Below are positions 13,089-54,305 of a DNA stretch of 64,000 bases, piece by piece. The stretch is from Corallococcus coralloides. GTDB taxonomy: Bacteria > Myxococcota > Myxococcia > Myxococcales > Myxococcaceae. The stretch is from NCBI RefSeq assembly GCF_004104415.1, contig NZ_CP034669.1; one strand, 5' to 3'. Position 1 is the stretch's first letter. Each line of letters begins with the position of its first letter. The notes under the pieces were generated by a model. It was not told the DNA's origin, ran no database searches, and saw only the letters and a list, made by a program, of their open reading frames with translations. A program made the position numbers and the translations under genes.

Positions 13089-13135
13089 CCACCGCTCGGA
13101 CGCGGCGGACGGGGGCGCCTCTTCGGATAGAGCGT

Positions 13136-16332: not shown

Positions 16333-16407
16333 TGGAGCGGGAAAAGGGATTTGAACCCTCGACCCTCGCCTTGGCAAGGCGATGCTCTACCGCTGAGCTA
16401 TTCCCGC
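16333..16407 (-). tRNA. tRNA-Gly (anticodon GCC), identical second copy
   Basis: This is an exact duplicate of the 75-nt tRNA sequence, 106 bp downstream of the first copy, with a 31-bp spacer. Confidence 0.9.
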
Positions 16408-25185: not shown

Positions 25186-25246
25186 GGTGGCACCCCCGGT
25201 TGTTCCACCCCCGCGCCGCCGGAAACGACGGCGCGGCGGGCGGGCT

Positions 25247-25954: not shown

Positions 25955-25957
25955 GGA

Positions 25958-26281: not shown

Positions 26282-26343
26282 GAGTGTGTCCGCCTTCTCG
26301 AAGCTGTGCGCCTGGGGGGCCGTGGGTCGGTCCCCGGTGGATG

Positions 26344-32432: not shown

Positions 32433-34004
32433 ATGCACTCCGTCCCTTCGCGCCCGTTCGCGGCGCGGGCCTTCCTGGCCACGCTGACCCTCTGTGCTTC
32501 CGTGTTCGCCGCCTGTGGTGGCGAGAAGCCGGCTCCCATCCCGGACCCGCCGACGGTGACGCTCACCGTGCCGCAGCCGAACACGGCGGCCCCGTCGCTG
32601 GCGGTGCGGGTCATCGTGTCCGGGTGTGACGCCGTGTCGCGGGTGGACATCTACGACCGGGACACGTTCCTGAAGACCGTGCCCTACACCAGCGGGTCCA
32701 TGGACTTCGAGCTGGCCTCGAATGAAATCAAGTACGACCGCGGGCTCGCCGTGAGCCTGTCGCTCAACGCGCGGGCGACGTGCTCGGACGGCCGGACGAA
32801 CTCGTCCCAGCCGCAGCCGGCCACGTTCCTGCCGGTGACGAAGGTCATCAAGGATCCGGACCCCAACGGCCAGGTGGTGACGGACTTCTTCACCGCCGAG
32901 GGCAGCGGCAACACCGCCGCCTTCATCGGGTGCGGCAACACCACGACCGGCAGCGGCACGCTCTACCGCGTGGACTCGACGGGCGTGGTGAGGAACACCC
33001 TGGAGATGCAGATCCCCTGCAGCGCGTCCACGGTCGTCACCGAACTGAATCCGACCAGCAACAAGCGCTGGGTGTGGACCCCGGGCGTCGGCGCGATCGC
33101 CGTGGACTCGAACTTCGTCGTCACGGGCAAGACGGCGCCGTCCTACGCGCTGAAGAACCTGTCCGTCATGAGCAACGGCGACGCGCTCGTGAGTGACGGT
33201 CCTTCCGTGTCGCGGCTCCAGCACACGGCGACGGGCGGCACCTTCCAGTGGACCTACCAGGGACTGTGGGCGCCCGTGGGGCCGGCGAAGCAGCGGGCCG
33301 AGCAGGTGCTCATCCCCATCGTGCGCGTGCCCCAGGAGTCGACCGGGCTCCTGGTGGAGCTGGTGGTGATCACGGTCGATGCGACCAAGACGGGGAGCAT
33401 TCCCGCTGTCAGTGAGCGCACCATCCTGCAGTTCACGGGCGCGGTGGAGCATCCCCCGCTCACCGCGTTCAACACCGACGGCTCGGTCATCTACATCTCG
33501 TTCCCCTTCAACAACAACCAGTCGCGCGTGCAGGCGTGCCTGACCGCCCAGAGCGGCTGCGAGGGCTCGGCGCACAAGTGGGATTCGCAATTCTTCCCCG
33601 TGGAGATCCAGGGCGTGTTCCCCTATGCGGCGGGCTCGCGGCTGGCCATCGTGGGCCTGCAGCGCGTCTGGTTCCTGGACAGCGAGAGCGGCCTCGTCGT
33701 CAACAAGGGCGGCACCTCCGTGGACGCGTCCGGCCAGCTGCAGATCCTCCAGGTCCAGATGGGCCGCGCCACCACCTCCGAGTTCTACATCCTGGCCGGC
33801 CCGGCCTCGGGGTCCTCCGGCCTGCCCACCATGCCCCAGGAGATCGTCGCGGTGGACTCCGCCGAACAGGGCGAGCTGTTCCGCTACGAGGTCTCCAGCA
33901 GCCTGTCCTGCTCCGTGGATGACAGCGGGCGGCTGTGGATGCGCCTGGGCAACAACCTGGTGCAGGCCCTCACGCTGCCCGAGTACCGCGCCGTCAAGAA
34001 GTGA
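32433..34004 (+). CDS. Secreted lipoprotein of unknown function (S/T/N/G-rich, beta-rich)
   Basis: It was trimmed to the ATG at 32433. The signal peptide plus lipobox is MHSVPSRPFAARAFLATLTLCASVFAACGG. The 523-aa product has an unusual composition for this genome, with many S, T, N, Q and V residues. Confidence 0.7.
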   Translation: MHSVPSRPFAARAFLATLTLCASVFAACGGEKPAPIPDPPTVTLTVPQPNTAAPSLAVRVIVSGCDAVSRVDIYDRDTFLKTVPYTSGSMDFELASNEIKYDRGLAVSLSLNARATCSDGRTNSSQPQPATFLPVTKVIKDPDPNGQVVTDFFTAEGSGNTAAFIGCGNTTTGSGTLYRVDSTGVVRNTLEMQIPCSASTVVTELNPTSNKRWVWTPGVGAIAVDSNFVVTGKTAPSYALKNLSVMSNGDALVSDGPSVSRLQHTATGGTFQWTYQGLWAPVGPAKQRAEQVLIPIVRVPQESTGLLVELVVITVDATKTGSIPAVSERTILQFTGAVEHPPLTAFNTDGSVIYISFPFNNNQSRVQACLTAQSGCEGSAHKWDSQFFPVEIQGVFPYAAGSRLAIVGLQRVWFLDSESGLVVNKGGTSVDASGQLQILQVQMGRATTSEFYILAGPASGSSGLPTMPQEIVAVDSAEQGELFRYEVSSSLSCSVDDSGRLWMRLGNNLVQALTLPEYRAVKK

Positions 34005-38205: not shown

Positions 38206-39903
38206 CTAGCAGTCCACCGGGCCTTTCAGGCTGGTAACGGTCGCTTCGATTTCTTCACACCCGCCCAGGGTCTTCGCCCCGTGGGCCGCCAGCTTGATGC
38301 CCAGCACGTCCCCCACCACCACGTCCGCCATGGAGCGCACCACGACGCCGTCCCGCTGGCGGAACGTCACCGCGTAGCCGCGGGACATCACCTTCAGGGG
38401 GCTCAGGGCGTCCAGGCGGCCCCCCAGCCGGCCGAAGTGCGTCTGCGCGGACGCCAGCGTGCCCCGCTGCAGCTCCAGGAGCCGCGAGCGCGCCTGGGCC
38501 ACCTTCGCCCGCTCGGCCGCCACCCGCGCCGTGGGGGATTGCCGCTCCAGCCCCAGCCGCGCGTCCGCCAGCGCGCCCCGCCGCCGGGTGACGCCCGCGC
38601 GCGCCGCCTCCGACAGGCGCATGGCCAGCTTGAGCAGGTGCGCCCGCTGCTCCGACAGCCGCGTCTGGGGCCGCGCCCGCTGCAGCCGCTCCTGCAAGGC
38701 GCGCAGCGTCTCCCGGTGCTCGCGCGTGCGGGGGCGCAGCACGCGCATCATCGCCTCCACCTGTTCGGACAGGTGCAGGCGCTGGTGGTTCACCTCGCGG
38801 CGAGGGTCCGGCAGCCGCGCGCGAAGCTGGCCCTGGCGCTGGCGCAGCTCCAGCACCCGGCGCTCCATGGCCCGGCGCAGCCGGCCGGACTGCGTGGCCA
38901 GCGTCAGCTCCAGGTCGGCCAGCACCGGCGCCAGCCGCTCCGCCGCCGCGCTGGGCGTGGGCGCGCGCAGGTCCGCGACGAAGTCGGAGATGGTGAAGTC
39001 GATCTCGTGGCCGATGGCGGACACCACCGGCACCGGCGAGGCGAAGATGGCGCGCGCCACCCGCTCCTCGTTGAACGTCCAGAGGTCCTCCACGGAGCCT
39101 CCGCCGCGCGTCACGACGATGACGTCCACGTCGGTGCGCGAAAGCCGCTCGATGGCCCGCGCCACGTCCTCCGCGGAGCCTTCCCCCTGCACGCGCGCGT
39201 CCGCCAGCAGCACGCCCAGCCGGGGGTTGCGCGAGTGCAGCACGCGCAGGAAGTCCTGGAGCGCCGCGCCGGTGCGGCTGGTGACGACGCCGATGCGCCG
39301 GGGCAGGAACGGCACGGGCCGGGGCGGCCGCACGCGCCGGTCGCCGATGAGCCCCTCCGCCGCCAGCCGCTGCTTGAGCTGCTCGAACGCGAGCGCCAGC
39401 GCGCCCTCGCCCACCGGCTCCAGCCGGGACACGATGAGGCTGTAGCGGCCCTGCGGCTCGTACAGGTCCACGCTGCCCTCGGCCACCACCTCCATGCCGT
39501 CGCGCAGCGCGAAGCGGATCCGCGACGCCATGGACGCCCACACCTTCGCGTCGATGGAGGCGTCCGAGTCCTTCAGCGTGAAGTACCAGTGGCCGCGCGC
39601 GTTGGCGCCGCGGAAGCTGGACACCTCGCCGCGCACCATCACGCGCGGGAAGCGCGACTCCACCGTCTGCTTGATCTGCCGGGTGAGCTCGCCCACCGAC
39701 AACACCGTGCGCTCCGGACGCGGCGTCTGAGCGATTTCAGCCACCGGCGCGGTGGAAGGAGCCTGGGGGGCCGCGGGCGGCTTGCCTCCGCTGGCGGCCT
39801 TCGCCGGCGCGGGACGCAAGGGGGGCAGCAGCGACGTGCCGAACAGGTCGCCCTGCCCCGGCTCGTCGGCCGGAGGCGGCTCCAGCCCCTTGCGCTTCTT
39901 CAT
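38206..39903 (-). CDS. xseA: Exodeoxyribonuclease VII large subunit
   Basis: It was trimmed to the ATG at 39903 (MKKRKGLEPP...). The OB-fold N-terminus is LSVGELTRQIKQTVESRFPRVMVRGEVSSFRGANARGHWYFTLKD. The catalytic region is VVTRGGGSVEDLWTFNEE and a long coiled-coil C-terminus follows. The 5' part of the track ORF is junk. Confidence 0.9.
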   Translation of the reverse strand: MKKRKGLEPPPADEPGQGDLFGTSLLPPLRPAPAKAASGGKPPAAPQAPSTAPVAEIAQTPRPERTVLSVGELTRQIKQTVESRFPRVMVRGEVSSFRGANARGHWYFTLKDSDASIDAKVWASMASRIRFALRDGMEVVAEGSVDLYEPQGRYSLIVSRLEPVGEGALALAFEQLKQRLAAEGLIGDRRVRPPRPVPFLPRRIGVVTSRTGAALQDFLRVLHSRNPRLGVLLADARVQGEGSAEDVARAIERLSRTDVDVIVVTRGGGSVEDLWTFNEERVARAIFASPVPVVSAIGHEIDFTISDFVADLRAPTPSAAAERLAPVLADLELTLATQSGRLRRAMERRVLELRQRQGQLRARLPDPRREVNHQRLHLSEQVEAMMRVLRPRTREHRETLRALQERLQRARPQTRLSEQRAHLLKLAMRLSEAARAGVTRRRGALADARLGLERQSPTARVAAERAKVAQARSRLLELQRGTLASAQTHFGRLGGRLDALSPLKVMSRGYAVTFRQRDGVVVRSMADVVVGDVLGIKLAAHGAKTLGGCEEIEATVTSLKGPVDC

Positions 39904-41648
39904 CGCGACAGCTTCTCGACCCAGCCCTGGGCCTTGCCGTGCAGCTCGTCGTCGGGCGGCGTCATCGCGACGACGTCGCGGAACTTGGGCAGCGCGTCCT
40001 CCGGGCTGGAGTCCTTGATGGAGTAGGCCTGCATGTACAGGTCCTTCGCCTTGCCCTTGAGGTCGTTGACGATGTTGGCGGCGCCCGCGTGGCTGGGGTC
40101 CGCCTGGAGCGCGCGGCGGGCGAACTCCATGGCGCGCGACCACTGGCCGGCGGCCTTCGCGCCCGCGGCGCTCTTGTAATAGATGTTGCCCGCGCGGGTG
40201 CCCGCGTTGCGCGCCATCTTGCTCGTGCGCCCGTCGGTGATGTCCTTGTCCAGCGCGAGCAGGCGGGTGAGGCCCTTGGCGTCCAGGCCCTCCAGCTTCT
40301 TGTAAAGGTTGCCGAACTCCGTCATCTGCGCCATCAGCCGCTTGCACTGGGCCGTCTTGGCCGAGCACGCGTTGAGGATGGCCACCGCGCCGGTGATGTC
40401 CGCGTCGCGGAAGCGGTCCACCGCGGGCTCCCACGGCTTGGGCGCCGCGGCCACGCGCACGGGGTCCGGACGCGTCAGGTCCGCGATGACGCGCACGGCG
40501 TCGTCATTGACGAGCTTGCCGTCGCGGTGCTCCGGGAAGGTCGCGAGCACGTCGTCGGTGATGGCCTTGGCATTCTGCACGTTCTCCAGCGCGCGGGTGT
40601 CCAGCAGCCGCTTGGCCTCCTTCGTGCGCGTGTCGGCGGCGTCCGTCAGGTTCTTGCGCGCCGTCTTCAGCTGCTCGTAGAGCTGGGTGTCGCTGCTCAC
40701 CTTCTCGATGGACGCCTTCGCGGCGGCGAGCTGCCCCTTGTCCAGCGCCGCCTGGGCCGCGCCCAGGTGCTTCTGGTTGGGAATCTCCCGCTCCGCGGCC
40801 TTCAGGTAGTCCTCCACGCCGGGGTAGGCCGGCGCCTGCGTGTGGAGCTCCTCCAGCTTCGCCTTGGCCTGCTCCCACTGGCCCTCGCGCACCAGGTTCT
40901 TGGCCTCCTGGAAGAGGCCGCCCAGCTGCTCGCGGTACTTGCGCTGCTCCGCCTCGATGCGGCCCTGCTCCTCCTGCTGCTGCCGCATGCGCGAGCGCGC
41001 GACGCCCAGGCCCGCGAAGAGCACCACCAGCACGGCGACGCCCGCGAGCTTCATCCGCATGCGCTTGCGCTGCGCTTCCGGCGTGAGCTCCGCGGCGGCC
41101 GCGGCCCGCGACGTCTGCGGGCGCGCGCGGCCCTCCCGGGCGGGGCGCGAGGGGACGGCCGTGGGGCCGCGGCCCGCCGCCGTGGACGGACGGGGCCGGG
41201 GGCTGGAGGGGGCCTGCACCTTGGCGGTGCTGTTGGCGGTGTCCTCGTAGCGCAGCTCCGAGTCGCCCAGCGTGATGACGTCGCCGTTGGCGAGGAGCGT
41301 CTCCTCGGCGATGGGCTCGCCGTTGACGATGGTGCCGTTGCCGGAGCCCATGTCACTGACCATCCAGCCGGCGGACTCCTTGCGCAGCGTCACGTGCTTG
41401 CGGGAGACGGACGTGTCCTGGATGCAGATGGGGTTGTCGGTGGCGCGGCCGACCGTGTACTCGAGCTCGGAGAGCGCGAACTCCTCGCCCTCCATGGGGC
41501 CGGCGACGACGACGAGCTTCGCGGGGCGGGCCGCGGCGGCACCGGCGGTCGACCGGCGGACCGGCGCGCGCGAACCCGTCCCGGAGGAGGGCGTACCGGA
41601 CGTAGGCCGTCGGCGGGCGGGGGGAGGTGCGTTCGACATGGCGGTCAC
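39900..41648 (-). CDS. FHA-domain protein with one TM segment and a C-terminal TPR-like/helical periplasmic region (Tad/Kil-locus associated)
   Basis: The FHA core is VGRATDNPICIQDTSVSRKHVTLRKESAGWMVSDMGSGNGTIVNGEPI. The TM helix is LAGVAVLVVLFAGLGVA. A roughly 330-aa helical repeat domain follows. The stop overlaps the xseA start. Confidence 0.75.
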   Translation of the reverse strand: MTAMSNAPPPARRRPTSGTPSSGTGSRAPVRRSTAGAAAARPAKLVVVAGPMEGEEFALSELEYTVGRATDNPICIQDTSVSRKHVTLRKESAGWMVSDMGSGNGTIVNGEPIAEETLLANGDVITLGDSELRYEDTANSTAKVQAPSSPRPRPSTAAGRGPTAVPSRPAREGRARPQTSRAAAAAELTPEAQRKRMRMKLAGVAVLVVLFAGLGVARSRMRQQQEEQGRIEAEQRKYREQLGGLFQEAKNLVREGQWEQAKAKLEELHTQAPAYPGVEDYLKAAEREIPNQKHLGAAQAALDKGQLAAAKASIEKVSSDTQLYEQLKTARKNLTDAADTRTKEAKRLLDTRALENVQNAKAITDDVLATFPEHRDGKLVNDDAVRVIADLTRPDPVRVAAAPKPWEPAVDRFRDADITGAVAILNACSAKTAQCKRLMAQMTEFGNLYKKLEGLDAKGLTRLLALDKDITDGRTSKMARNAGTRAGNIYYKSAAGAKAAGQWSRAMEFARRALQADPSHAGAANIVNDLKGKAKDLYMQAYSIKDSSPEDALPKFRDVVAMTPPDDELHGKAQGWVEKLSR

Positions 41649-41675
41649 CGCGTCCTGCTGAGGGGGGCACGAGCC

Positions 41676-44597
41676 CTAAAGCTCGTGCTCATAGGCTTTT
41701 TCCTGCGCGAGATTGTGGCAGCGATGCTCGGCCGTAGGGAAGCGTCTCCGTACGTCTTCCAGGGTCGCGACCGCATCCCGTCGGCTGCGGAACTGAACCG
41801 CCCGCTGGAACTGCATCATCAGCTGGCTGCAGCGGTGGTCCAGCTCCGTTGAAATCTGGGCGATCCGCTCCCGGACGTCCTCGTAGAGCTCCGGCTTGTC
41901 GTCCAGCGCCTCCAGGGTGATCCACGCGGCGCGGTATTCCCGCCACGCCTTGAACAGGTTCTCCGCGCCCACGTCCTTGAGCTCGTAGAAGCGGGCCCCC
42001 GCCTTCGCGGCCTCCCGGGCGGAGAGGATCAGCTGCTCCGGCGTCGCCTCCGGCACCGGGATGATCTCCAGCCGCAGGTTCCAGATGCGCCACGGGTCAC
42101 GGCCGGGCGGGTTGAGGGCGTTGTCGAAGAGGAGCTGGTTGTTGGCGTTGCGCCGCAGGAGGCTGGGCGGGAGGATCTGCTCCAGCTCACGCTCGGCTGT
42201 CTGTGCGGTATCCGGGGGCACCCAGCCCAGGGACACGCCGTTGAGGGACAGGTTGACCTCGTCCCGGGCGATGTTGCTGGCCTGGTAGTGCAGCACGGCC
42301 ACCGCGCGCGTGGGGGACACGAAGCGGAAGTCGAAGAGCTTGTCGTCGGCGTGGACCCAGCGCACGCCCTCGCCCAGGCCGAAGGAGTCCGTCACCGGCT
42401 CCATGCCCAGCTTGGAGGGTTCGCGGCCCGGGAGCCGGATGGCCGTGGGGAACACGAGCGCCACGAGCAGCGTCACCACGCCCAGCGCGGCCACGGCCGC
42501 CAGCGACGCGAAGCCGATGCGCCTGGGCAGCGACTGGCGCTGCCAGAAGAGGACGAGCTGCCCCTGGAGCGACCGGGCCAGTTGACGCCGCCTGCGGGCC
42601 TTGTCGGCGGCGGAAGAGGGCTCGACCTTCGCGACGACCGTCACCGGGCCGTTGGGCACGGGCTGGACGAAGGAGTCCTCCAGGTCGGCCGGCACGGGCT
42701 GGGGGGCTTCGCCCTCCCCGTTCGGAGCGGGCGCGCGGGCCAGCAGTGGGATTTCACCCGGCGGCAGGCCGGGGTCCAGGGTCGGGGCCGGCGCGGCGCG
42801 ATCCCTGCCGACGAACGTCACCGGCTCCGGCTCCGGCGAGGGCGGCGGGACGGGAGGGCTCCAGGCCGGCGGAGGCGCCGGTGCGGCGGACCCGGGCGCG
42901 ACCTGGCCCGAGAAGGTCCCCGAGGCCCGGGTCTCCTCGGGGGCCGCGGAGAGGTCATCGTCCTGGCCGACGAAGGTCGAGGGCTCGCTGGAGTTGATCG
43001 CGGCGGCGGGCGCGCTCACGACGCGCACCGGAGGGGCCACGAGCGGACGGACCGGCGTGATGGGCCGGAGGTCGAGGACCGTCCGCTCCTCGGGCTCCTC
43101 CATCATCGGCGGAGGCAGCGCGGGCGAGGCGTCCTGAGGAGGCGGCGCCTTTTCCAGCGGCGGAGCTTCCCGGGTCGCCGGAATCGCCATCAGCGTGCGC
43201 TCCTCGGGCTCGTCCGGCTCCGGGAAGGGCAGCATGGGCGGCGGCGCGCTGGGCACGGGCGAGTCCACCGTGGAGATCGCCATCAGCGTGCGCTCCTCGG
43301 GCTCGTCCAGCTCCGGGAAGGGCGGCACGGGAAGCGGCGCGGCGGGCACGAGCGGGTCCACCGTGGAGATCGCCATCAGCGTGCGCTCCTCGGGCTCGTC
43401 CAGCTCCGGGAAGGGCAGCACGGGCGGCGGCGCGGCGGAGGGCACGGGCGAGTCCGCCGAGGGAATCGCCATCAGCGTGCGCTCCTCGGGTTCATCCGGC
43501 GCCACGGGTGCCAGGCCCACGGGAGGCGATACGGCGGAAGGCCGTGCTGGAGGCGGCGGAGCCATGAGCCCCGGCGGCGTCATCAACGGCAGGCCCGGTG
43601 AGGAAGCCGGGGCACCCCGGGCCGCCGGAGCAGCGGACGCGCGCGCGGCGCCAGGCCCCAGCGAGGGACGGTTCAGCGCGGGCGCACCGACACCGGGAAG
43701 GTCCGCGGCAGTCTCCGGCGCGGACGACCGGCCCGGCTCCGAGGTACCCACGGCTGACAGTCCCGGCCCGGAGGGCCGGACGGAGGCGGGAGCTCCCGAA
43801 GCCCGGTTCGCCGCCGAGGCGCTCGGCGCCGGGGGGCCAGCAGGAGCCTTGGCCGGAGCGCCCACGCCCGGAGCAGCGGAACCCAACACCGGGGGGCCCG
43901 CGGGAGTTCTGGCCGGCGCTCCCGGCCCTGAAGTCCCCAACACAGGAGGCGCGGCGGGAACCTTGCCCGAAGCAGCCGACGCGGAGGCGCCCAGCGCAGG
44001 AGGCCGCACCGCAGCAGCCGCGGCTGGAGAGGAAGCGCCCAGCACAGGAGGCCCTGGCGGAGGCCGCACCGGAGCAGCCGCGACCGGCGCGGAGACATTG
44101 ACCGCCGGCAGATCCGGAGCGGAGGGCCGCTTCGGCGTGGCGGCCGGCATCGGCATCGCCGGGGTCGCCCCACCCTTCGCGGCGGGCACGGCCATTCCCG
44201 GGCGCGGCGGAGCTGCCGGCCGGGCCATGGCCGGCATCGACGGCTGGAAGCTCGTGGGCGCCGCTTCAATCTCCGCGAGCGAAGCCTGCTCCAGGCCCTG
44301 CGGCGACACCTTCGCATGGGGCGGCGCGAGCGCCCGCCGGATGGGCCGGGTGACGTCGTCATCATCCTCCGGCGGCATCCACACGAAGGTGAACTCCACC
44401 GGCCCCACGGTGATGCGGTCGCCGTCGCGCAGCTGCTTCTCGCCGCCCAGCGGCTGGCCGTTCAGCTGCGTGCCGTTCGCGCTGCCGACGTCCTCCGCGA
44501 AGTAGCGCCCATCCCTCGCCGTGATGCGGGCATGACGCCGGGAGACCCCGTGGTCATGCAGGACCAGGTCGTTCTCCGAGGTCCGGCCGATCTTCAC
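41676..44597 (-). CDS. FHA-domain protein with a very long Pro/Ala-rich repetitive linker, one TM segment and a C-terminal periplasmic domain
   Basis: N-terminal FHA: KIGRTSENDLVLHDHGVSRRHARITARDGRYFAEDVGSANGTQLNGQPL. About 600 aa are P/A/G-rich and include four 31-aa tandem repeats (…EPEERTLMAIS…). The TM segment is IGFASLAAVAALGVVTLLVALVF. The annotated start is GTG; the FHA N-terminus probably extends about 20 codons upstream with a non-canonical start. Confidence 0.75.
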   Translation of the reverse strand: MKIGRTSENDLVLHDHGVSRRHARITARDGRYFAEDVGSANGTQLNGQPLGGEKQLRDGDRITVGPVEFTFVWMPPEDDDDVTRPIRRALAPPHAKVSPQGLEQASLAEIEAAPTSFQPSMPAMARPAAPPRPGMAVPAAKGGATPAMPMPAATPKRPSAPDLPAVNVSAPVAAAPVRPPPGPPVLGASSPAAAAAVRPPALGASASAASGKVPAAPPVLGTSGPGAPARTPAGPPVLGSAAPGVGAPAKAPAGPPAPSASAANRASGAPASVRPSGPGLSAVGTSEPGRSSAPETAADLPGVGAPALNRPSLGPGAARASAAPAARGAPASSPGLPLMTPPGLMAPPPPARPSAVSPPVGLAPVAPDEPEERTLMAIPSADSPVPSAAPPPVLPFPELDEPEERTLMAISTVDPLVPAAPLPVPPFPELDEPEERTLMAISTVDSPVPSAPPPMLPFPEPDEPEERTLMAIPATREAPPLEKAPPPQDASPALPPPMMEEPEERTVLDLRPITPVRPLVAPPVRVVSAPAAAINSSEPSTFVGQDDDLSAAPEETRASGTFSGQVAPGSAAPAPPPAWSPPVPPPSPEPEPVTFVGRDRAAPAPTLDPGLPPGEIPLLARAPAPNGEGEAPQPVPADLEDSFVQPVPNGPVTVVAKVEPSSAADKARRRRQLARSLQGQLVLFWQRQSLPRRIGFASLAAVAALGVVTLLVALVFPTAIRLPGREPSKLGMEPVTDSFGLGEGVRWVHADDKLFDFRFVSPTRAVAVLHYQASNIARDEVNLSLNGVSLGWVPPDTAQTAERELEQILPPSLLRRNANNQLLFDNALNPPGRDPWRIWNLRLEIIPVPEATPEQLILSAREAAKAGARFYELKDVGAENLFKAWREYRAAWITLEALDDKPELYEDVRERIAQISTELDHRCSQLMMQFQRAVQFRSRRDAVATLEDVRRRFPTAEHRCHNLAQEKAYEHEL
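43183..43560 (-). repeat. About four tandem copies of a 93-bp coding repeat inside the FHA protein gene
   Basis: The unit atcgccatcagcgtgcgctcctcgggctcgtccagctccgggaagggcagcacgggcggcggcgcggc...ccaccgtggag recurs starting at about 43183, 43276, 43369 and 43465. Each encodes about ERTLMAISTVDxPVPSAxPPxLPFPELDEPE. Confidence 0.8.
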
Positions 44598-44670
44598 TTC
44601 GGCCTGCTCGAAGGCGAGCTCCCGTCCGACCTGGAGCCCCTGGGTGATGGTGAGCAGGATGGGCAGAGGA

Positions 44671-45561
44671 CTAGCCCCCGACGTTGCCGAACATGAACTG
44701 GAACACGATGGGCCCGAAGAGCACCATGAACACCGTCGGGAAGATGCAGGCGATGAGCGGGAAGAGCATCTTCACCGGCGCCTCGCCCGCGAGCTTCTCC
44801 GCGCGCTGCGTGCGGTCGATGCGCATCTGCGTGGACTGGATGCGCAGCACCTTGCCCAGGCTCGTCCCCATCTTGTCCGCCTGGATCAGCGCCGTGACGA
44901 ACGTCGTCAGCGACGGCAGGTCCACGCGCACGATCATGCTCTTGAGCCCCTCTTCACGCGTCTTGCCCATCTTGAGCTGCTTGAGCACCAGCTGCAGCTC
45001 TTCACGCAGCGGCCCCTGGCGGCCCTTCTCCACCACCTTCGCCAGCGCGCCCGTGAAGTCCATGCCCGCTTCCACCGACAGCGTCAGCAGGTCCAGGTTG
45101 TACGGAAGCGCGCGGCTGATGGCCAGGTGACGGCGCTTCACCTGGTCGTTCAACCAGATGAGCGGATAGAACAGGCCCAGCAGCATCACCACCAGCGACC
45201 AGGCCAGGTTCGCCCCGATGCCGTTGGCGACGAACAGGCCCACCAGCAGGCCCAGGAAGGCGCTCACTTCCTGCAGCGCCATGATGTCCTCGGGCTTGTA
45301 CTGGGACGGCTCGCCCGCCTTGATCAGCTTGCGGCGCGTCTTGGACTCGTAGCCCGGCCACATGAAGCGCCGGTTCATCGAACCCAGCTTGCGGATGGCG
45401 ACGGAGCCCGCGCCCTTCATGCCGCCCGCGGACTCGTCCCGGACTTCCGTGAGGAAGCGCTCCAGGAGGTTGGAGTACAGGCCGATGCCCAGGAACGCCA
45501 CCGCGCCCGCGGTCAGCAGTGCCGAGCCGCCCATCAGCAGAAATGTCAGGACTTCCTGCAC
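44671..45561 (-). CDS. Type II secretion system F-family inner-membrane platform protein (TadC-like)
   Basis: The 296-aa ORF has three TM helices. The conserved T2SSF region is SRALPYNLDLLTLSVEAGMDFTGAL...TALIQADKMGTSLGKVL. Confidence 0.8.
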   Translation of the reverse strand: MQEVLTFLLMGGSALLTAGAVAFLGIGLYSNLLERFLTEVRDESAGGMKGAGSVAIRKLGSMNRRFMWPGYESKTRRKLIKAGEPSQYKPEDIMALQEVSAFLGLLVGLFVANGIGANLAWSLVVMLLGLFYPLIWLNDQVKRRHLAISRALPYNLDLLTLSVEAGMDFTGALAKVVEKGRQGPLREELQLVLKQLKMGKTREEGLKSMIVRVDLPSLTTFVTALIQADKMGTSLGKVLRIQSTQMRIDRTQRAEKLAGEAPVKMLFPLIACIFPTVFMVLFGPIVFQFMFGNVGG

Positions 45562-45574
45562 GGTGCGCCTCGTT

Positions 45575-46420
45575 TCAGATGTCGATGTTGACGATGCGCC
45601 GGATGATGAGGATGCCCATGATCTCCATGATGGCGATGATGGTCACCAGGATGTAGCCGAAGATGTGGTTCATCATCGGCTCCATCAGGTCCGGACGCAT
45701 GTAGTTGAGCACCATGCCCAGCACCGCCGGCATGGCCGCGACGATCCACCCTTGAAGCTTGCCCTGGGACGTCAGCGCGTCGATCTTGCCTTCCAGGCGG
45801 AAGCGCTCGCGGATCACCGTGGAGATGGTCTCGAACATCTCCGCCATGTTGCCGCCCAGCTGGCGCGCGATGTTGGTGGACACCACCACCAGCTCCAGGT
45901 CGTCGCTGCCCACGCGCTTGCCCATGTTGACGAGCGCCTCTTCCAGGGGCACGCCCAGCTTCACTTCCTTCACGAAGAGGCCGAACTCCTGGGACAGGGG
46001 CGGCAGCGCTTCGCGCGCCACGTGCTCGATGGCCTGCGGGAACGTGAGGCCCGCCTTGAACGCGTTGGCCATGGCCTGCAGCGCGTCCACCAGCTGCACG
46101 TTGAACTTCTTGATGCGGCGCTTGCGGTAGTGCTTCACGAGCAGCATCGGCAGGAAGAAGCCGAAGATGGTCGCGAGCACCGCCAGGATGGGGTTGAAGA
46201 CGATGTAGCTGAGGATGCCCAGGAGGCACATGCAGGCGATGTTGAGGATCAACATCTGCCGCGCGTCGATGAAGAGGAACATGTCGCTCAAGTCGTTCAT
46301 CGACTTGGCGACGTACCGCTCCTGGTACTGCTCATACGCCTTCGACAGGACGCTGAAGATCACCAGGCTGAAGAAGAACACCGAGCCGGTGACGAGGAGG
46401 AGGACGATACCTGCGAGCAT
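45575..46420 (-). CDS. Type II secretion system F-family inner-membrane platform protein (TadB-like)
   Basis: The 281-aa ORF has TM helices at both ends. The T2SSF region is LVDALQAMANAFKAGLTFPQAI...STNIARQLGGNMAEMF. Confidence 0.8.
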   Translation of the reverse strand: MLAGIVLLLVTGSVFFFSLVIFSVLSKAYEQYQERYVAKSMNDLSDMFLFIDARQMLILNIACMCLLGILSYIVFNPILAVLATIFGFFLPMLLVKHYRKRRIKKFNVQLVDALQAMANAFKAGLTFPQAIEHVAREALPPLSQEFGLFVKEVKLGVPLEEALVNMGKRVGSDDLELVVVSTNIARQLGGNMAEMFETISTVIRERFRLEGKIDALTSQGKLQGWIVAAMPAVLGMVLNYMRPDLMEPMMNHIFGYILVTIIAIMEIMGILIIRRIVNIDI

Positions 46421-46499
46421 GGGCGCGAATCCCCGGGGGATGAGGGAGGGGTCGGCAGGGCCGCTTCAGCCTTGAAGCGAAGCGGCCCCGCGCGCGGGA

Positions 46500-47318
46500 C
46501 TACGGAGCTCCGGCCGAGGCCTTCTCGCCGCCGCCACTGCCCTTGATGATCTGGATGATCTCCCGGCGCTTCTGCTCGAGCACGCGGGTGCGCTCGCCGG
46601 ACAGCAGCGTGCTGATGGTCGCGCGGCCACGCTCTTCGATGAGGTCCACGTCGTCCTCGTTGCGCAGCGACAGGGTCAGCTGCCCCAGCTCCGCCGCCAG
46701 CACCAGGATCTCCGCCTCTTCCGGCAGCACCATCAGCGAGACGTTGGAGTACTCGCGCTGGTTCTCCGGGATGAGGTTGATGTTCGTGGTACCGGTGATC
46801 TTGCCCGTGGCGACCACGATGATGTTCTGCAGCAGCGTCACCGCGACGCTCTCATCCGTCTGCGGATCGCGGAACGTGCCGATGATGTCCACGTGGTCGT
46901 TCGGACGGATCCACCCGCCCACGGACGTGGTCTGCTTCGCCTCGATGGTGATGGCGCGCGCCTTCTTCTGCACCTTCGTGGACAGGCGCTCGGCGGCCTT
47001 CGTCGTCTCGAACTGGCTCCAGAGGATGGGGTCGCCGGCCTGCAGCGCCACCAGCACCTTCTGGTTCACGATGTAGTTGGCGGAGTCCGGCTTCACCACC
47101 GACGAGGTGACGAACTGCTCCGGCACGGAGCGCTGGGAGATCATCTCGTACGTGATGACCGAACCCTCGGGCATGTCCTGGCCCGCCACCACCACGGGCA
47201 CCAGGTTCCACCCGCGGCGCACATCCGATTCCTTCTTCTTGATGGCCGAGTAGGCCACGATGCCCGCGAGCAAACCGAGCACCAGTGCGACGACGAGCGG
47301 GGTCTTACCCTTCAACAT
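46500..47318 (-). CDS. cpaB: Flp pilus assembly protein CpaB/RcpC family
   Basis: An N-terminal TM anchor (PLVVALVLGLLAGIVAY) is followed by SAF-like and CpaB beta domains (...GDPILWSQF...NIIVVATGKITG...). It lies directly upstream of the tadB/tadC-like genes. Confidence 0.75.
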   Translation of the reverse strand: MLKGKTPLVVALVLGLLAGIVAYSAIKKKESDVRRGWNLVPVVVAGQDMPEGSVITYEMISQRSVPEQFVTSSVVKPDSANYIVNQKVLVALQAGDPILWSQFETTKAAERLSTKVQKKARAITIEAKQTTSVGGWIRPNDHVDIIGTFRDPQTDESVAVTLLQNIIVVATGKITGTTNINLIPENQREYSNVSLMVLPEEAEILVLAAELGQLTLSLRNEDDVDLIEERGRATISTLLSGERTRVLEQKRREIIQIIKGSGGGEKASAGAP

Positions 47319-47551
47319 GGTTCAAGGTCCTCCAGAACGGTGGGGCGCCGTCGTGGCGGCAGGACTGCTTTGGACGAGGGGGCAATGCCAGGGCGCGAAC
47401 GGGGCAAGATGTTAGCCATGCCCCAGAGCAGGTGTCAAAACCACCTCTCGCGACAAAGCGGAATCCCGGGACCTCCGGAGCTCACGGAGCCTGCCCGCCC
47501 AGGGGGGAGGACGGCTCGACGCAGCGTGCGGACCCGCGGCCTCTGCGTCCC

Positions 47552-47854
47552 TCAGGGGAACGGCAGGTTCAGCACGAAGTAGAACGAGTCGTAATAAATC
47601 TGGTACGCCTCGAGGAACAGGTCGATGACGTTGGTCTGCCGGTCGTCCGTCCAGCGGATCCGCACCGTGGCGCCAATGACGAGCCCGACGATCAACACCC
47701 AGTTGATCATCGAGTACTCCACCATGGCCTGGCCACGGCGGGCCCGGCGCGGGGAGCGCGGCGGTGACTTCCGGGAGCTGTTCACGGGGGGAGCGGGCAC
47801 GTCCGACGTCATGTCCCCATTATCCAGGACCCGGGCCCCGGACGCATCGGTCAT
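47552..47854 (-). CDS. TadE/Flp-family prepilin-like protein with a G/xxxxEY prepilin peptidase motif
   Basis: The sequence ...RRARRGQAMVEYSMINWVLIVGLVIGATV matches the Flp/TadE class III signal (G↓xxxxEY followed by a hydrophobic helix). The predicted mature part is about 58 aa. The leader of 42 aa is unusually long; 27 aa if the start is the ATG at 47812. Confidence 0.6.
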   Translation of the reverse strand: MTDASGARVLDNGDMTSDVPAPPVNSSRKSPPRSPRRARRGQAMVEYSMINWVLIVGLVIGATVRIRWTDDRQTNVIDLFLEAYQIYYDSFYFVLNLPFP

Positions 47855-47872
47855 GTGGACTGCCGCCCTCCC

Positions 47873-49321
47873 CTACTGCGCGGGCTGGGCGGGAGCGGCC
47901 TTGGCCGGAGCCGTGGGGGGCGAAGCCTGACGCAGGCGGCGCTGGGCCAGCTGCGCCGCGCTGGAGCCGGGGGCCTCGGAGATGATCTGCCCGCAGACGG
48001 CGGCGGCCTCCTGGGTCCGGCCCTGGACGGACTCCGACTCGCAGAGCCGTGAGAGCAGGGCCAGCCGCTCGCTGCCGCTGGCTCCGGCCGACAGCGCGGC
48101 GCGCAGCAGCTGGGCCTCCCGGGCGCGGTCACCCTGGTTCGCGGCGGCCTGGGCCTGGGCGGACAGGTCGCGCGCCGTCATCGCCTCCTTGGACGCGGAC
48201 TTCTCCAGGGGGACAGGCTTCGCGGCCTCGGCGCGGGCGGACTCCTGCTTGGGCGTGGCGGTCGAAAGCGCCGGGGGCGTGGACGGGGGCCGCGCACCGC
48301 CGATGGAGCCCACGGCGGCGGGGGCCATGGGCTCGGCCTGGACCACGGGCGCGGAGGCCACGGCGGGAGGGGGCGGAGGCGCGCCCGCGGCGACACTCTG
48401 GTCGTCATCCATGCCGAGCCCACGGCCATAGGCCGCCTCACCCAGCCGCAGGGAGTCACCCGCCGAGCCCATGGCCTTGTCGCCGAGCTTGCCCGGGGAA
48501 CTCCGTCGCGCGGGTTCATCCTTCGCGGCGTAGCCTTCGTCGGCCGCCTCTTCCTTCGGAGGCGACACCGGCATGACCGCCCCGGCCGGCGCCTGCTCGA
48601 GCGCGGCGAACTCGCCGTCCGCGTCCCGGACGGCCTTGGACATCTTCTTCCTGGGAGCCTCGGCGTCCGCGCGGCGCTCCAGCAGCGCGCCACCGCTGCC
48701 CGCGTTCATCCAGTCCGACGGACGGGCCGCGGCGGTGCCCTTGCGCTGCACCTTGGCCTCCACCCGGTTCTTGTCGAACTCCCTCTCGCTCGGAGCGGCC
48801 GCAAGTGCGTCCGAGGCACCTTCGGGCACGTCCTCTTCGAGGGTCGCGCTCGAGGGCGCGGGGGCCATCGCGGTCGGGGCGCTCTTCTCCCGCGTCCGAG
48901 AATCCTGCTTCGCCGCCTCCATCGCCGGGCTGGGCGCGGCCCGCTGCGACAGGTTCGGCGACAGGTCCAGGTTCTCGCTCACCGTCAACGTCAGGAGGCC
49001 GAAGGTGCTCACCGTGGCCAGGCCCACCGCGGGCAACAGCCAGCGGCGCCAGCGCGAGGGCTTCGGCTCGGGGCCGGCGGCGGCGCGGCGCGCGGACTGC
49101 TGCGCGTACGCGAGCAGCGACTCCAGGCCCGCGTCCGGCGCGGGCTCTGACGACAGCTGCGCCATGGTGGTGCGCACGCCGCGGATGTCCGCCAGCGCCT
49201 TCGTGCAGCGCGCGCACCCCTGGACGTGCTGCTCCAGCGCGTGGGCCTCCGACGCGGGCAGCTCGCCATAGGCGAAGTCGAGGAGCCGGTCCTCGTGCGC
49301 GTGGGCATTCTGGGCATTCAT
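47873..49321 (-). CDS. Anti-sigma factor (zinc-finger ZAS-like N-terminus, single TM, long low-complexity C-terminal region)
   Basis: N-terminus: DFAYGELPASEAHALEQHVQGCARCTKAL (HxxxCxxC). TM: WLLPAVGLATVSTFGLLTL. A roughly 370-aa A/P/S/E-rich extracytoplasmic region follows. Its start overlaps the stop of the ECF sigma gene. Confidence 0.75.
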   Translation of the reverse strand: MNAQNAHAHEDRLLDFAYGELPASEAHALEQHVQGCARCTKALADIRGVRTTMAQLSSEPAPDAGLESLLAYAQQSARRAAAGPEPKPSRWRRWLLPAVGLATVSTFGLLTLTVSENLDLSPNLSQRAAPSPAMEAAKQDSRTREKSAPTAMAPAPSSATLEEDVPEGASDALAAAPSEREFDKNRVEAKVQRKGTAAARPSDWMNAGSGGALLERRADAEAPRKKMSKAVRDADGEFAALEQAPAGAVMPVSPPKEEAADEGYAAKDEPARRSSPGKLGDKAMGSAGDSLRLGEAAYGRGLGMDDDQSVAAGAPPPPPAVASAPVVQAEPMAPAAVGSIGGARPPSTPPALSTATPKQESARAEAAKPVPLEKSASKEAMTARDLSAQAQAAANQGDRAREAQLLRAALSAGASGSERLALLSRLCESESVQGRTQEAAAVCGQIISEAPGSSAAQLAQRRLRQASPPTAPAKAAPAQPAQ

Positions 49322-49998
49322 CCCGCCACCGTCCTTCCATCCTCCGACAGGTCGCCGTCCACGCCCAGCTCACCCAGGCGGCGGCGCAGGCCCTCCAGCG
49401 CGTAGCGCATGCGGCTCTTCACCGTGTTCTCGGACACGCCCGTCACCTCGGCGATCTCCTTGAACGGGATGCCGCTGTACTCGCGCAGCACGAACACCTC
49501 GCGCTGCTCCTCCGGCAGGGCGGACAGGGCCCGCTCCAGCAGGGGCCGGAGGCGGGCGTTGTGGGCGCCGCGCTCCGGGCTGGCCCCGGCATCCGGCAGC
49601 CCCTCGCCCAGCGGACGTCCCTCGTCGCCGTCGGCGCCCGCCGCGGGGGCTTCCAGGGACGTCGCCTGGCGGTAGCTCTCTTTGCGCGTGCTGTCCACGC
49701 AGAGGTTCCTCGCGATGGTGTACAGCCAGGTCGTGAACCGGGCCTTGGGCTCGTATTCCCGGGCGCTGCGGACCACCTTGAGCCAGGTCTCCTGCAGCAC
49801 GTCCTCCGCCCGCGCCCTGTGGCCTACGAAGCGCAGGATGAAGTTGAACACCGGCGCGCGGTGCTTGCGCACCAACGCATCGAACGCACGCGCGTTTCCC
49901 GCCTGGAAGGCGAGCATCAGCTGCTCGTCTGAGGTTTCGGGTGCCAAACTTCCCCCAGTGCCCATGAAGCCACGGGTGCCATCCCCTTCACCGCCCAC
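49318..49998 (-). CDS. ECF (sigma-70 family, group 4) RNA polymerase sigma factor
   Basis: Region 2 is FDALVRKHRAPVFNFILRFVG...DVLQETWLKV. Region 4 is LPEEQREVFVLREYSGIPFKEIAEVTGVSENTVKSRMRYAL. The start is at 49998 or the internal ATG at 49965. Confidence 0.85.
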   Translation of the reverse strand: MGGEGDGTRGFMGTGGSLAPETSDEQLMLAFQAGNARAFDALVRKHRAPVFNFILRFVGHRARAEDVLQETWLKVVRSAREYEPKARFTTWLYTIARNLCVDSTRKESYRQATSLEAPAAGADGDEGRPLGEGLPDAGASPERGAHNARLRPLLERALSALPEEQREVFVLREYSGIPFKEIAEVTGVSENTVKSRMRYALEGLRRRLGELGVDGDLSEDGRTVAG

Positions 49999-50029
49999 GG
50001 CCTGTAACGGACAGCCGTGCGCGAAAGGT

Positions 50030-50443
50030 CTATTCCGGCCGTGGCCGCCGGTAAGTGGCGAGAATGACAGGGACCGCCACCCCTGTCACCAGAAGTGCCT
50101 GCGCCAGCAATACCGCCGGCAACGGGCGCTGCACATGCACGTACAGCGAGCGGCCGAGCCCCGCTCCCAACAGGACGCCCGTCAGCGTGCGCACCGCGTT
50201 GGAACCCGAAGCGGGCCGGAAGCGTCCCACCGCCCAGTCCACGAGCGCGGGCAGCGTGAGGGCCAGCACCACCGGCACGTCCCACTCCCACCGCAGCGGC
50301 GCCTTCAGCGCGAACAGTCCGAGGAACACGCCAGCGAGCACCGGATACGTGCCCAGGCACCGCGCGCACACGCGCACGCCCGCGAGCACGTACGTGCGGT
50401 TGTACTCATCCGGGTGATGATGGCTGAGCCAGAACACCGGCAC
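50030..50443 (-). CDS. Small membrane protein (DUF2085-like, CARC motif)
   Basis: After about 45 junk codons the track ORF contains [40 protein letters not shown] plus three further hydrophobic helices. A plausible GTG start at 50443 overlaps the upstream ATPase stop. Confidence 0.45.
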
Positions 50444-52464: not shown

Positions 52465-52468
<4 letters not shown>

Positions 52469-53484
52469 TTCTGGGCCAGCTCCTCCAGGAACTCCGCCTC
52501 CTGGATGAGCCCCTTGCGGATGAGCAGGCGGATGAGGCTCGCGACCATGCGCGCGGGCTTCACCTTCTCCGTGTCCAGGCTGGCCTCTTCACCGCGCGAG
52601 ATGCGGTCGATGTCGTCCAGCACCGCCAGGTCCTCCTCGGAGAAGTCCGGCTTGGGCGTGAGCGCCACGGACGGCTTCACGCCCTGCGCGGCGCCGCCGA
52701 AGAGCACCACCGGCACGCGCGGCTTGCTCGGGTCCTCCGGCTCCGCGGGGGGCGGAGGCGGGGCCGGCGGACGGGCCGCGGCGGGGGGCGGCGGCGGACG
52801 CGGGGCCTTGGGGACCTTGGGACGGGGCGTGGAGCCCAGGATGTCCTCCAGCACCTCCGCGCCGTCGGCGGACGCGTCGCCCTCGTGCGGCGGCGGCGGC
52901 GGCAGATCCCAGTCCAGCGGCGGCGGCGCGGGCGGACGCGGCGGCGTGGGCGCGCGCGCGGCGGCGGGAGGGGCCGGCGGCGACGGCAGGATGTCCGGCG
53001 AATCGTCCTCGTCCATGTCCATCGGTTCAGCCTCCACGATGTCCAGGGGCTCGCCCCGGCCTCTCGCCAGTGCCTGCTCCAGGTCGTCCGACGCGGCGAC
53101 GAACACCTTGAGCGGCTTGCGCAGCTGGAAGCGCAGCTCATCCACCAGCATCAGGTTGCCCGGGTCCTCCACCGCGACGTGGATCTTCTCGCCGCGGCCG
53201 TCCTGCTCCAAAGCGAAGAGGAGCACCCGGTGCTCGGTCTGGAAGTCCATGGACACCAGCGAGGACACCGCATGCGGGATGTACTCGGGGAGCTCCACGA
53301 AGGGCAGCTCGTGCTGCGCCGCCAGCGCCTTCGCGATGTCCCGGCCCGTGCACAGGCCCATGGACACCAGCACCTCGCCCAGCTTGCGGCCCTGGCCGCG
53401 CCGTCCGGACGCGAGGGCCTGCTTCACCTGCTCGTCCGTCACCACTCCGGCCTGGACGAGGAGTTCACCAATCTTCTTGCGCAT
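52465..53484 (-). CDS. Stand-alone MshEN (T2SS GspE N-terminal-like) domain protein with a Pro-rich linker and short C-terminal helix. No ATPase domain.
   Basis: The N-terminus has paired motifs [24 protein letters not shown]...[33 protein letters not shown], the 2 x 24-aa signature of MshEN c-di-GMP-binding domains. A P/A-rich linker of about 100 aa and a C-terminal [19 protein letters not shown] follow. Confidence 0.7.
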
Positions 53485-53493
53485 GGCCGGGGG

Positions 53494-54246
53494 CTACCGC
53501 TTGACCTTGGCGAGGTATTCCTCGCGGGAGAAAATGCCCTTCTCGATGAGCAGCTCCACCATGGCCTTCAGCGCCGCGACCTCCTTGCGCTGGACCTCCT
53601 CCACGCTCTTGAGCAGGTCCGCGGGGCTGCCGGACGGGGCCTGACGGGGGGGCTCCGCCGGGGGGGCCTGACGGGGGGGCGGCGCGGCGGCGGGCTTGGG
53701 GGACATGGCGACGGCGGCGGCCGGGTCCAGGTCCTTGAGGTTCTTCACGACGGTGCGGCCCTGCGCGTCCACCACCTTGAAGTTGGTGTCCGCGTCCTCC
53801 AGCTCCGCCGTCTCCTCGTAGAGGCGCGCGAACGCCCGCGCCACGGAGGTGCGCCCGGCCACGTTGGCCACGATGCGGCACTTGGACAGGGCCCGCAGCT
53901 CGTCCAGCACCCGCACGTTGAGCGGGTCCGACATGGCGACCACCAGCGTCTTGCCGTCGTCGCGCAGCTGCAGCGGCACCACGGAGAAATCGCGCGCCGT
54001 CTGCGCCGGAATCTTGGCCTTCACGTGCGGCGGAACCATCTGCACGGAGTCCAGGTTCACCGCCGGCATGCCCAGCTGCTTCGACAAGGCGCGCACGAGG
54101 ATGTCCTCTGAGACGAGGTTCATCCGGACGAGGATCTCGCCCAGCTTCCCGCCCCACTTGGCCTGCTCGGCGAGCGCCGCCTTGAGCTGGCTCTCCTGCA
54201 GGACGTTCGCCTTGATCAGCAGTTCTCCAAGCTTGATCTGTGCCAT
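53494..54246 (-). CDS. Stand-alone MshEN (GspE N-terminal-like) domain protein, paralogue of the preceding gene
   Basis: IKLGELLIKANVLQESQLKAALAEQAKWGGKLGEILVRMNLVSEDILVRALSKQLGMPAVNL. It has the same two-motif architecture, a Pro-rich linker, and a C-terminal LIEKGIFSREEYLAKVKR similar to the paralogue. Confidence 0.7.
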   Translation of the reverse strand: MAQIKLGELLIKANVLQESQLKAALAEQAKWGGKLGEILVRMNLVSEDILVRALSKQLGMPAVNLDSVQMVPPHVKAKIPAQTARDFSVVPLQLRDDGKTLVVAMSDPLNVRVLDELRALSKCRIVANVAGRTSVARAFARLYEETAELEDADTNFKVVDAQGRTVVKNLKDLDPAAAVAMSPKPAAAPPPRQAPPAEPPRQAPSGSPADLLKSVEEVQRKEVAALKAMVELLIEKGIFSREEYLAKVKR

Positions 54247-54305
54247 GTCGTGCGCGCCATAGTACCCGGTTTGCGCCGGGACGCTGCCTTTCGACGCCTG
54301 GAAGC

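Follow-up and report, generated by a model that had tools for sequence, protein, structure and literature searches.

A compact, Tip4-less locus of Corallococcus coralloides as the probable ortholog of the Myxococcus xanthus kil cluster II

The Kil system is a Tad-like pilus of the predatory bacterium Myxococcus xanthus, in which deletion of kil genes abolishes prey killing (PMC8460266). Both its division into two gene clusters and its presence in Corallococcus have already been published. In the table of the M. xanthus cluster II (Seef 2021 Supplementary file 1, PMC8460266), MXAN_4648 is a protein with FHA and TPR domains, MXAN_4649 an FHA protein, MXAN_4650 and MXAN_4651 are KilH and KilG, and MXAN_4652 is KilB; MXAN_4653 to MXAN_4660 comprise KilK, KilL, KilM, a TadG-like protein and unknowns, and MXAN_4661 is a 'putative zinc-finger' protein. 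KilK serves in M. xanthus as the adapter minor pilin for Tip1, Tip2 and Tip4 (PMC12075869). In this study we analyzed a stretch of 64,000 nucleotides (the window) from the genome of Corallococcus coralloides (assembly GCF_004104415.1, contig NZ_CP034669.1), which carries a Tad-like locus with two FHA proteins and an extracytoplasmic function (ECF) sigma/anti-sigma pair. From sequence comparison it is highly probable that this locus is the Corallococcus ortholog of kil cluster II and contributes the half of the Kil pilus, a machine for contact-dependent prey killing, that lies in the inner membrane and periplasm. What is new here is minor in comparison, and consists of a compact form without Tip4, a CTG start codon, the expansion of a linker, the nature of the periplasmic domains, and a conserved promoter and palindrome.

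The window has a G+C content of 72%, and genes were called by the G+C content at third codon positions (GC3). Eight genes run on the minus strand from 49998 down to 39900 with very short gaps between neighbours, and every open reading frame (ORF) is intact with coding-type GC3 values of 0.84-0.97. All eight genes were recovered on the minus strand at the coordinates given in the initial annotation, which had been made from the sequence of the window. The features of the locus are as follows.

50005 to 50088, minus strand: conserved elements upstream of the sigma gene, a palindrome (50065-50088) and a TAGACC motif (50005-50032).
49318 to 49998, minus strand: ECF sigma factor with GTG start (Pfam Sigma70_r2, r4_2 and Sigma70_ECF; NCBIfam PRK12513 with 267 bits, cutoff 206).
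47873 to 49321, minus strand: zinc-finger anti-sigma factor (ZAS-type), MXAN_4661 ortholog (Pfam zf-HC2, E=7.7e-6).
47552 to 47854, minus strand: kilK ortholog, a 100-aa Flp-type prepilin with RRG/QAMVEY motif.
47409 to 47438, minus strand: sigma-70-like promoter TTGACA-N18-TAACAT, about 90 nt before the kilB ATG.
46500 to 47318, minus strand: kilB (CpaB/RcpC family; TIGR03177 with 190 bits, Pfam RcpC and SAF), with an N-terminal transmembrane segment or signal anchor.
45575 to 46420, minus strand: kilG, a TadB/CpaG-like platform protein of the T2SS-F family (Pfam T2SSF).
44671 to 45561, minus strand: kilH, a TadC/CpaH-like platform protein of the T2SS-F family (Pfam T2SSF).
41676 to 44666, minus strand: MXAN_4649 ortholog, the long FHA protein; the ORF list gave 44597-41676, and a CTG start at 44666 is probable.
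43183 to 43497, no strand assigned: 93-nt tandem repeat in the linker-coding part of the long FHA gene (Tandem Repeats Finder, 3.4 copies, 88% match).
39900 to 41648, minus strand: MXAN_4648 ortholog, the short FHA protein, a 582-aa FHA and TPR protein (Pfam FHA, Yop-YscD_cpl and weak TPR).

Two Pfam T2SSF matches and the TIGR03177 match agree with the platform and CpaB genes proposed in the initial annotation. The prepilin gave no Pfam match and was recognized by its motif G/QAMVEY, with the leader ...RRARRG / QAMVEYSMINWVLIVGLVIG. The correspondence to M. xanthus, which had been proposed from gene content and order, is borne out by orthology, synteny and the published gene table, and comparison with the Kil proteins MXAN_4648-4661 found syntenic orthologs with 83-95% identity in the core. 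KilB is 92% identical to the M. xanthus protein and 100% identical to that of C. coralloides KYC2213, and KilG and KilH are 95% and 83% identical to M. xanthus (comparison strain AM003). Outside this core, KilK shows 75-77% identity to the Myxococcus ORF at the MXAN_4655 position, the C-terminus of the anti-sigma factor 50-58% to the Myxococcus ORF at the same position, the C-terminal region of the long FHA protein 57-59% to its positional counterpart, and the MXAN_4648 ortholog 60-62% to its Myxococcus counterpart and 99% to a C. coralloides protein. The correspondence of the loci is anchored by an upstream ORF of the Myxococcus locus, which is 89% identical to a protein named MXAN_4659.

With KilG, the first T2SS-F protein of the locus, as query, 80 loci were obtained from a scan that took a single genome for each species, and gene order and flanks were compared by tblastn of all window proteins against the fetched loci. 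KilG identity is 99% within Corallococcus, 95% in M. xanthus and about 90% in Archangium and Cystobacter, and decreases to 74% in metagenome-assembled genomes (MAGs) of Myxococcaceae. Genes in the Corallococcus loci are ordered as ABC ATPases, sigma, anti-sigma, kilK, kilB, kilG, kilH, FHA, FHA and xseA-xseB-response regulator-ispA-dxs, and the same core order was found in Myxococcus, Archangium and Cystobacter. The flanks are likewise conserved, with the ABC ATPases and a DUF2085 gene upstream and xseA, xseB, the response regulator, ispA and dxs downstream. Codons of KilG differ from M. xanthus by 55 synonymous and 14 amino-acid-changing substitutions; this excess of synonymous changes indicates that the genes are under purifying selection and are not remnants.

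The locus had been described as lacking an ATPase, a secretin and a prepilin peptidase in the window, and a Pfam scan of the ORFs with coding-type GC3 across the 64 kb, apart from two small bactofilin-like ORFs, agrees: no T2SSE/CpaF ATPase, Secretin, Peptidase_A24, Pkinase or TadZ-like (ParA/MinD-type) ATPase was found. The ATPase and secretin, which had been expected at a second locus, are indeed placed there by published gene indices. For the complete C. coralloides genome, the accessible part of Supplementary Data 1 of Herrou 2025 (PMC12075869) gives KilA, KilC, KilF and KilD the gene indices 4689-4692 and KilH, KilG and KilB the indices 4609-4611, which puts cluster I past the window on its high-coordinate side, at a distance of about 80 genes. 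The same part of the source lists KilP, Tip1 and one Tip2 gene for Corallococcus; the gene of the major pilin KilP is located outside cluster II (Herrou 2025, PMC12075869). In two complete genomes of Corallococcus, kil clusters I and II are separated by about 80-85 genes, against about 1500 in M. xanthus, so that the degree of cluster splitting differs between the genera. By orthology with M. xanthus, KilG and KilH would form the inner-membrane platform, KilB (CpaB) would bridge this platform to the KilC secretin, and KilK would be the adapter Flp pilin through which Tip complexes of minor pilins are attached to the KilP filament. The second locus, about 80 genes off in C. coralloides, would contribute KilF as motor ATPase, KilC as secretin, KilA as prepilin peptidase, and KilD, while KilP, Tip1 and Tip2 would be encoded at further sites.

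The distance between the sigma gene and kilB is 8.2-8.8 kb in Myxococcus, Pyxidicoccus, Citreicoccus, Hyalangium, Archangium, Cystobacter and Vitiosangium. This stretch holds KilM4, KilN4 and KilL4 (Tip4), homologs of MXAN_4656 and MXAN_4657, KilK and a homolog of MXAN_4654, together with MXAN_4653 in the Myxococcus group. In the window and in 13 of 13 Corallococcus loci the distance is about 2.0 kb and accommodates kilK alone, and tblastn found none of the Tip4 minor pilins KilL4, KilM4 and KilN4 (MXAN_4658-4660) in the window or these 13 loci. Names of Corallococcus sensu stricto are also missing among the best 120 KilN4 homologs, which extend down to 44% identity; this is suggestive of, but does not prove, the absence of Tip4 from Corallococcus. 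In a neighbor-joining tree of KilB, KilG and KilH, Corallococcus is sister to Citreicoccus within the Tip4-bearing clade, and the deepest MAG lineages are compact. Because the genus is nested among Tip4-bearing genera, the simplest reading is that the Tip4 block was gained and later lost in Corallococcus together with four neighbouring genes. Corallococcus would thus be a natural Tip4-less case that retains KilK, which fits a role of KilK for Tip1 and Tip2 as well, and MXAN_4653, MXAN_4654, MXAN_4656 and MXAN_4657 are marked as dispensable for a functioning predator genus. A match to MXAN_4654 in the window was rejected as an artefact, in which the Myxococcus query ORF overlapped kilK in another frame. 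Two loci carry names at odds with their content and are likely cases of mislabelling or contamination: BNCN01000007.1 (L012), titled 'Comamonas sp. KCTC 72670', has an M. xanthus-type kil locus with KilG at 96% identity, and JBLZWL010000017.1 (L029), 'Corallococcus terminator BB12-2', groups with Myxococcus eversor and possesses Tip4.

A single hydrophobic segment is present in each of the two FHA proteins, and the residues N-terminal to it are rich in Arg and Lys. This agrees with the earlier description of two large transmembrane FHA proteins with a periplasmic C-terminus, and would put the FHA domain of both in the cytoplasm and the C-terminus in the periplasm. In the long protein, the Pfam FHA match begins at residue 2 of the GTG-started ORF (44597), such that the first two FHA strands are cut off. 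Position 44597 is the first ATG, GTG or TTG; upstream of it lies a conserved peptide, LPILLTITQGLQVGRELAFEQAEV, whose coding sequence contains none of these codons. The codon at the homologous start position is CTG in 39 loci (every Corallococcus locus among them), GTG in eight (M. xanthus included), ATG in four and TTG in one. Given the truncated domain, the conserved upstream peptide and these start codons, the gene most likely begins at CTG 44666 (44664-44666, minus strand), which gives a protein of 996 aa. This codon lies 4 nt past the kilH TAG and 8 nt past a GGGGG run, an arrangement suggesting that translation from the CTG would be coupled to the termination of kilH. Readthrough of the kilH stop was also considered as the source of the FHA N-terminus and was rejected, as the two frames are equal in Myxococcus and different in Corallococcus.

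The long FHA protein is composed of an FHA domain, a Pro/Ala-rich linker of about 600 aa, a transmembrane segment, a periplasmic beta-sandwich and a helical bundle. Orthologs range from 940 to 1124 aa in Corallococcus (e.g. P0362, 1021 aa) and from 483 to 678 aa in other genera; the long Corallococcus forms surfaced in a search of representatives and not in the first protein search. The additional length of the Corallococcus proteins is found in the Pro/Ala-rich cytoplasmic linker, where the 93-nt repeat encodes a 31-aa unit, ...DEPEERTLMAI.... The beta-sandwich and helical bundle of the periplasmic part are predicted by an AlphaFold2 model of the C-terminal 313 aa, with a predicted local distance difference test (pLDDT) score of 87.5. 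This periplasmic module belongs to a family of 396 cluster representatives, whose full-length members are about 450-1000 aa long with the module at the C-terminus. For the short FHA protein, AlphaFold2 predicts an FHA domain at residues 44-135, a disordered linker, a transmembrane helix at about 197-221 and an all-helical, TPR-like periplasmic solenoid.

Both FHA domains retain the canonical phosphothreonine-binding residues GR, SxxH and NG(T), and by sequence and fold they are nearest to GarA/OdhI and remote from YscD; the FHA domain of the short protein is 41% identical to GarA/OdhI and 19% identical to YscD. They would accordingly be canonical domains competent for phosphothreonine binding. 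When PDB sequences were searched, with a profile for the long FHA protein and with the short one itself, the matches were confined to FHA domains and designed TPRs and left the periplasmic parts uncovered, and Foldseek on the short protein gave FHA and generic TPR matches and nothing else. The Ser/Thr-kinase input proposed in the initial annotation would be in keeping with the binding residues of both domains, while no kinase domain was among the results of the Pfam scan of the window. A signalling role was suggested for the FHA proteins by Seef et al. (PMC8460266). We propose that the two proteins are probably transmembrane scaffolds or regulators, through which periplasmic events would lead to phosphothreonine-dependent recruitment of KilF and KilD, cytoplasmic components that themselves bear FHA domains.

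The ECF sigma factor consists of regions 2 and 4 only, and its stop codon overlaps the anti-sigma start by 4 nt. The anti-sigma factor has an N-terminal H-x3-C-x2-C motif (HVQGCARC), one transmembrane segment at residues 94-114, and a long, low-complexity extracytoplasmic part of which the C-terminal 90 aa or so are conserved; all NCBIfam anti-sigma models scored below cutoff on this protein. The sigma gene adjoins kil genes in every fetched locus with a long enough flank. kilK starts 18 nt past the anti-sigma stop; in genera with Tip4, the genes for it follow anti-sigma on the same strand after about 100 nt. Neither a separate recognizable promoter of kilK nor a terminator-like site between anti-sigma and kilK was found. 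The pilin genes may plausibly be co-transcribed with the sigma operon, which in the window would join kilK to the sigma/anti-sigma pair.

The promoter TTGACA-N18-TAACAT ahead of kilB is the sole promoter-like match in 11.2 kb, where 0.3 matches are expected, and TTTGACAC...TAACAT or TAGCAT precedes kilB in nearly all 80 loci, independent of which gene lies upstream. With a conserved sigma-70-type promoter of their own, the core genes are probably independent of the ECF sigma factor, and kilB, kilG, kilH and the two FHA genes would be transcribed together from it. The envelope-signal control by the sigma pair suggested previously would therefore extend to kilK at most, arguably by co-transcription, and probably does not hold for the core from kilB to the FHA genes. 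Two other elements precede the sigma gene. The first, about 70-90 nt ahead of the sigma start and within the final codons of the DUF2085 gene, is the perfect palindrome TGACAG-N12-CTGTCA with TTCTCGCCACTTAC after it; it is conserved nearly base for base, rare A/T-ending codons included, from Corallococcus to MAGs with 74-77% KilG identity. Of the 34 loci whose sequence covers this site, 27 have the palindrome, invariably 50-90 nt ahead of the sigma start; one more locus (L010) has it at another computed offset, and elsewhere in the fetched loci it is absent. The second element, TAGACC-N16-CGTTA, ends 6 nt before the sigma GTG and is conserved across genera. Both are unique in the window, with 0.00 (palindrome) and 0.05 (TAGACC motif) copies expected, and no copy of either was found before kilK or kilB. 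They may represent an operator and an autoregulated promoter of the sigma gene.

Other readings of the locus were weighed against orthology to kil cluster II. Tad pili are mostly adhesins (PMC8460266), and with a Flp-type prepilin, CpaB and two TadB/C-like genes at hand the locus might encode an ordinary adhesive Tad/Flp pilus for attachment or biofilm formation, unrelated to predation. This is very improbable, considering that neither the locus nor the window as a whole has TadZ, TadA, RcpA or TadV, that the genes are one-to-one syntenic orthologs (83-95%) of the kil genes needed for prey killing in M. xanthus, and that the FHA pair is a signature specific to Kil. The incompleteness of the locus on its own, and an FHA gene without canonical start codon, would also be expected of a decaying remnant left over from a complete tad operon elsewhere. 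Here the intact ORFs with coding-type GC3, the predominance of synonymous over non-synonymous changes, the CTG codon standing where orthologs have ATG, GTG or TTG, and the conservation of the upstream peptide all argue the other way. Moreover, in the accessible part of the published gene table the best KilB, KilG and KilH matches in complete C. coralloides genomes are the present locus and the partner cluster (KilA, KilC, KilD and KilF) lists no platform genes, which leaves the remnant explanation hardly credible. The proposed resemblance of the FHA proteins to type III and type VI secretion systems (T3SS, T6SS) is upheld as far as the FHA domain, where the likeness to T3SS SctD ends. If it went further, the proteins would be SctD/PrgH-like ring components or TagH/Fha-like parts and the locus would be coupled to a T3SS- or T6SS-type machine. 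In favour of this are the Pfam Yop-YscD_cpl matches (PF16697, 54 and 71 bits), sub-threshold TagH and SctD matches in NCBIfam, the HHpred label 'PrgH-like' for MXAN_4649 (Seef 2021 table) and the dependence of Tip function in M. xanthus on a needleless T3SS* (PMC12075869). The 'PrgH-like' label is based solely on the FHA domain, and the fold and residues of both FHA domains point to GarA/OdhI; we rate the coupling as quite improbable.

A more serious rival concerns the sigma/anti-sigma pair, which might be a mere syntenic neighbour with an unrelated regulon and no control over kil genes. The ABC ATPases, DUF2085, xseAB and dxs are conserved alongside, which makes adjacency weak evidence; the kil core is served by a sigma-70-type promoter of its own, and the motifs upstream of the sigma gene are not repeated before kilK or kilB. 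On the other hand, the gap of 18 nt to kilK is free of terminator-like sites, the Tip4 genes follow anti-sigma closely and on the same strand where they occur, and the pairing has outlasted the gain and loss of the 6-kb Tip4 block, in lineages from the deepest compact ones to Myxococcus. We consider the neighbour explanation somewhat doubtful, but a possibility to be taken seriously. With regard to the assignment of the locus to kil cluster II as a whole and the history proposed for it, several points speak on the opposite side. The role in predation is carried over to Corallococcus by orthology, and our literature searches for MXAN_4648, MXAN_4649, MXAN_4661 and MXAN_4662 found no functional study in any species. 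The linkage of sigma and kil genes may mirror a general conservation of gene order, as unrelated flanking genes are kept too. Tip4 could be located elsewhere in Corallococcus genomes, since the searches covered the window, the 13 loci and the best 120 KilN4 homologs; the tree is a simple neighbor-joining tree without support values, and the CTG start is read from alignment.

Taking kil cluster II orthology as given, the observations can be combined into one speculative and rather unlikely scheme, in which the FHA proteins are contact sensors of the Kil system, the sigma pair tunes the supply of pilins, and the loss of Tip4 and the doubled linker reflect retuning in the genus. The periplasmic beta-sandwich and TPR domains would sense prey or an envelope cue, upon which the FHA domains would nucleate KilD and KilF at the site. 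The sigma pair, which would have the palindrome as its operator, would set the supply of adapter and tip pilins (kilK throughout, and Tip4 in the loci that have it), and the deletion of Tip4 together with the repeat-bearing, doubled linker would retune prey range and assembly. The kilB promoter, the CTG start, the FHA architecture and the palindrome provide handles on how prey contact triggers Kil assembly.

Several other features were observed in the window. A 339-aa protein with an MshEN domain (the N-terminal domain of GspE/MshE-type ATPases) and without the ATPase domain is encoded at 52465-53484 on the minus strand, four genes upstream of the sigma gene, and this arrangement is kept in the Corallococcus loci. 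The region 23851-26685 (minus strand) encodes a ParB_N-domain protein adjoining two bactofilin-like ORFs, judged by eye; it resembles the M. xanthus padC-bacNOP neighbourhood and fits synteny with the MXAN_46xx region. A cluster at 704-16271, comprising GT1, GT2 and GT4 glycosyltransferases, a DUF2142 membrane protein, a Wzm/Wzt-type ABC transporter and a 1229-aa methyltransferase-glycosyltransferase fusion, resembles an O-antigen or polysaccharide locus. At 16227-16301 and 16333-16407 (minus strand) there are two tRNA-Gly(GCC) genes in tandem, equal in Rfam score, and Rfam found nothing else in the window. Two well-supported ORFs with GC3 of about 0.91 have no Pfam match, one of 586 aa at 32244-34004 (plus strand) and one of 316 aa at 53465-54415 (minus strand).

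The locus shares features with several known systems. With the canonical Tad/Flp/Cpa systems (Aggregatibacter tad, Caulobacter cpa) it has in common the G/XXXXEY Flp prepilin, CpaB/RcpC and the TadB/TadC pair, but it is without TadA/CpaF, RcpA/CpaC, TadV/CpaA, TadZ/CpaE, TadD and TadE/F/G, and adds two transmembrane FHA proteins and the ECF sigma/anti-sigma pair. T3SS SctD proteins (PrgH/YscD) likewise span the membrane, with an N-terminal cytoplasmic FHA fold, a periplasmic C-terminus and the PF16697 match. The FHA-fold domains of SctD are known to be without phosphothreonine-binding residues, whereas those of the present locus retain them, and the periplasmic part here is not built of ring-building motifs. 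The threonine-phosphorylation pathway of the Pseudomonas aeruginosa T6SS (Fha1/TagH, PpkA/PppA), used as an analogy by Seef et al. (PMC8460266), also associates FHA proteins with a contact-triggered envelope machine. However, the kil locus has no nearby kinase, phosphatase or T6SS genes, and its FHA proteins span the membrane and carry large periplasmic domains. The dispersed Tad system of Bdellovibrio bacteriovorus (bioRxiv 10.64898/2026.07.08.737194), compared by description only, belongs to a predator as well and has scattered genes with TPR and FHA genes nearby; it differs in lineage and organization, with a TadZA fusion and polar control by RomR. Compared with cluster II of M. xanthus (PMC8460266, PMC12075869), which has MXAN_4653, MXAN_4654, MXAN_4656, MXAN_4657 and Tip4 (MXAN_4658-4660), the Corallococcus locus is without all of these genes, its sigma-kilB distance is 2.0 kb instead of about 8.5 kb, and its MXAN_4649 ortholog has about 1000 aa and a CTG start instead of about 484 aa and a GTG start, while gene order, orientation and flanks are common to both.

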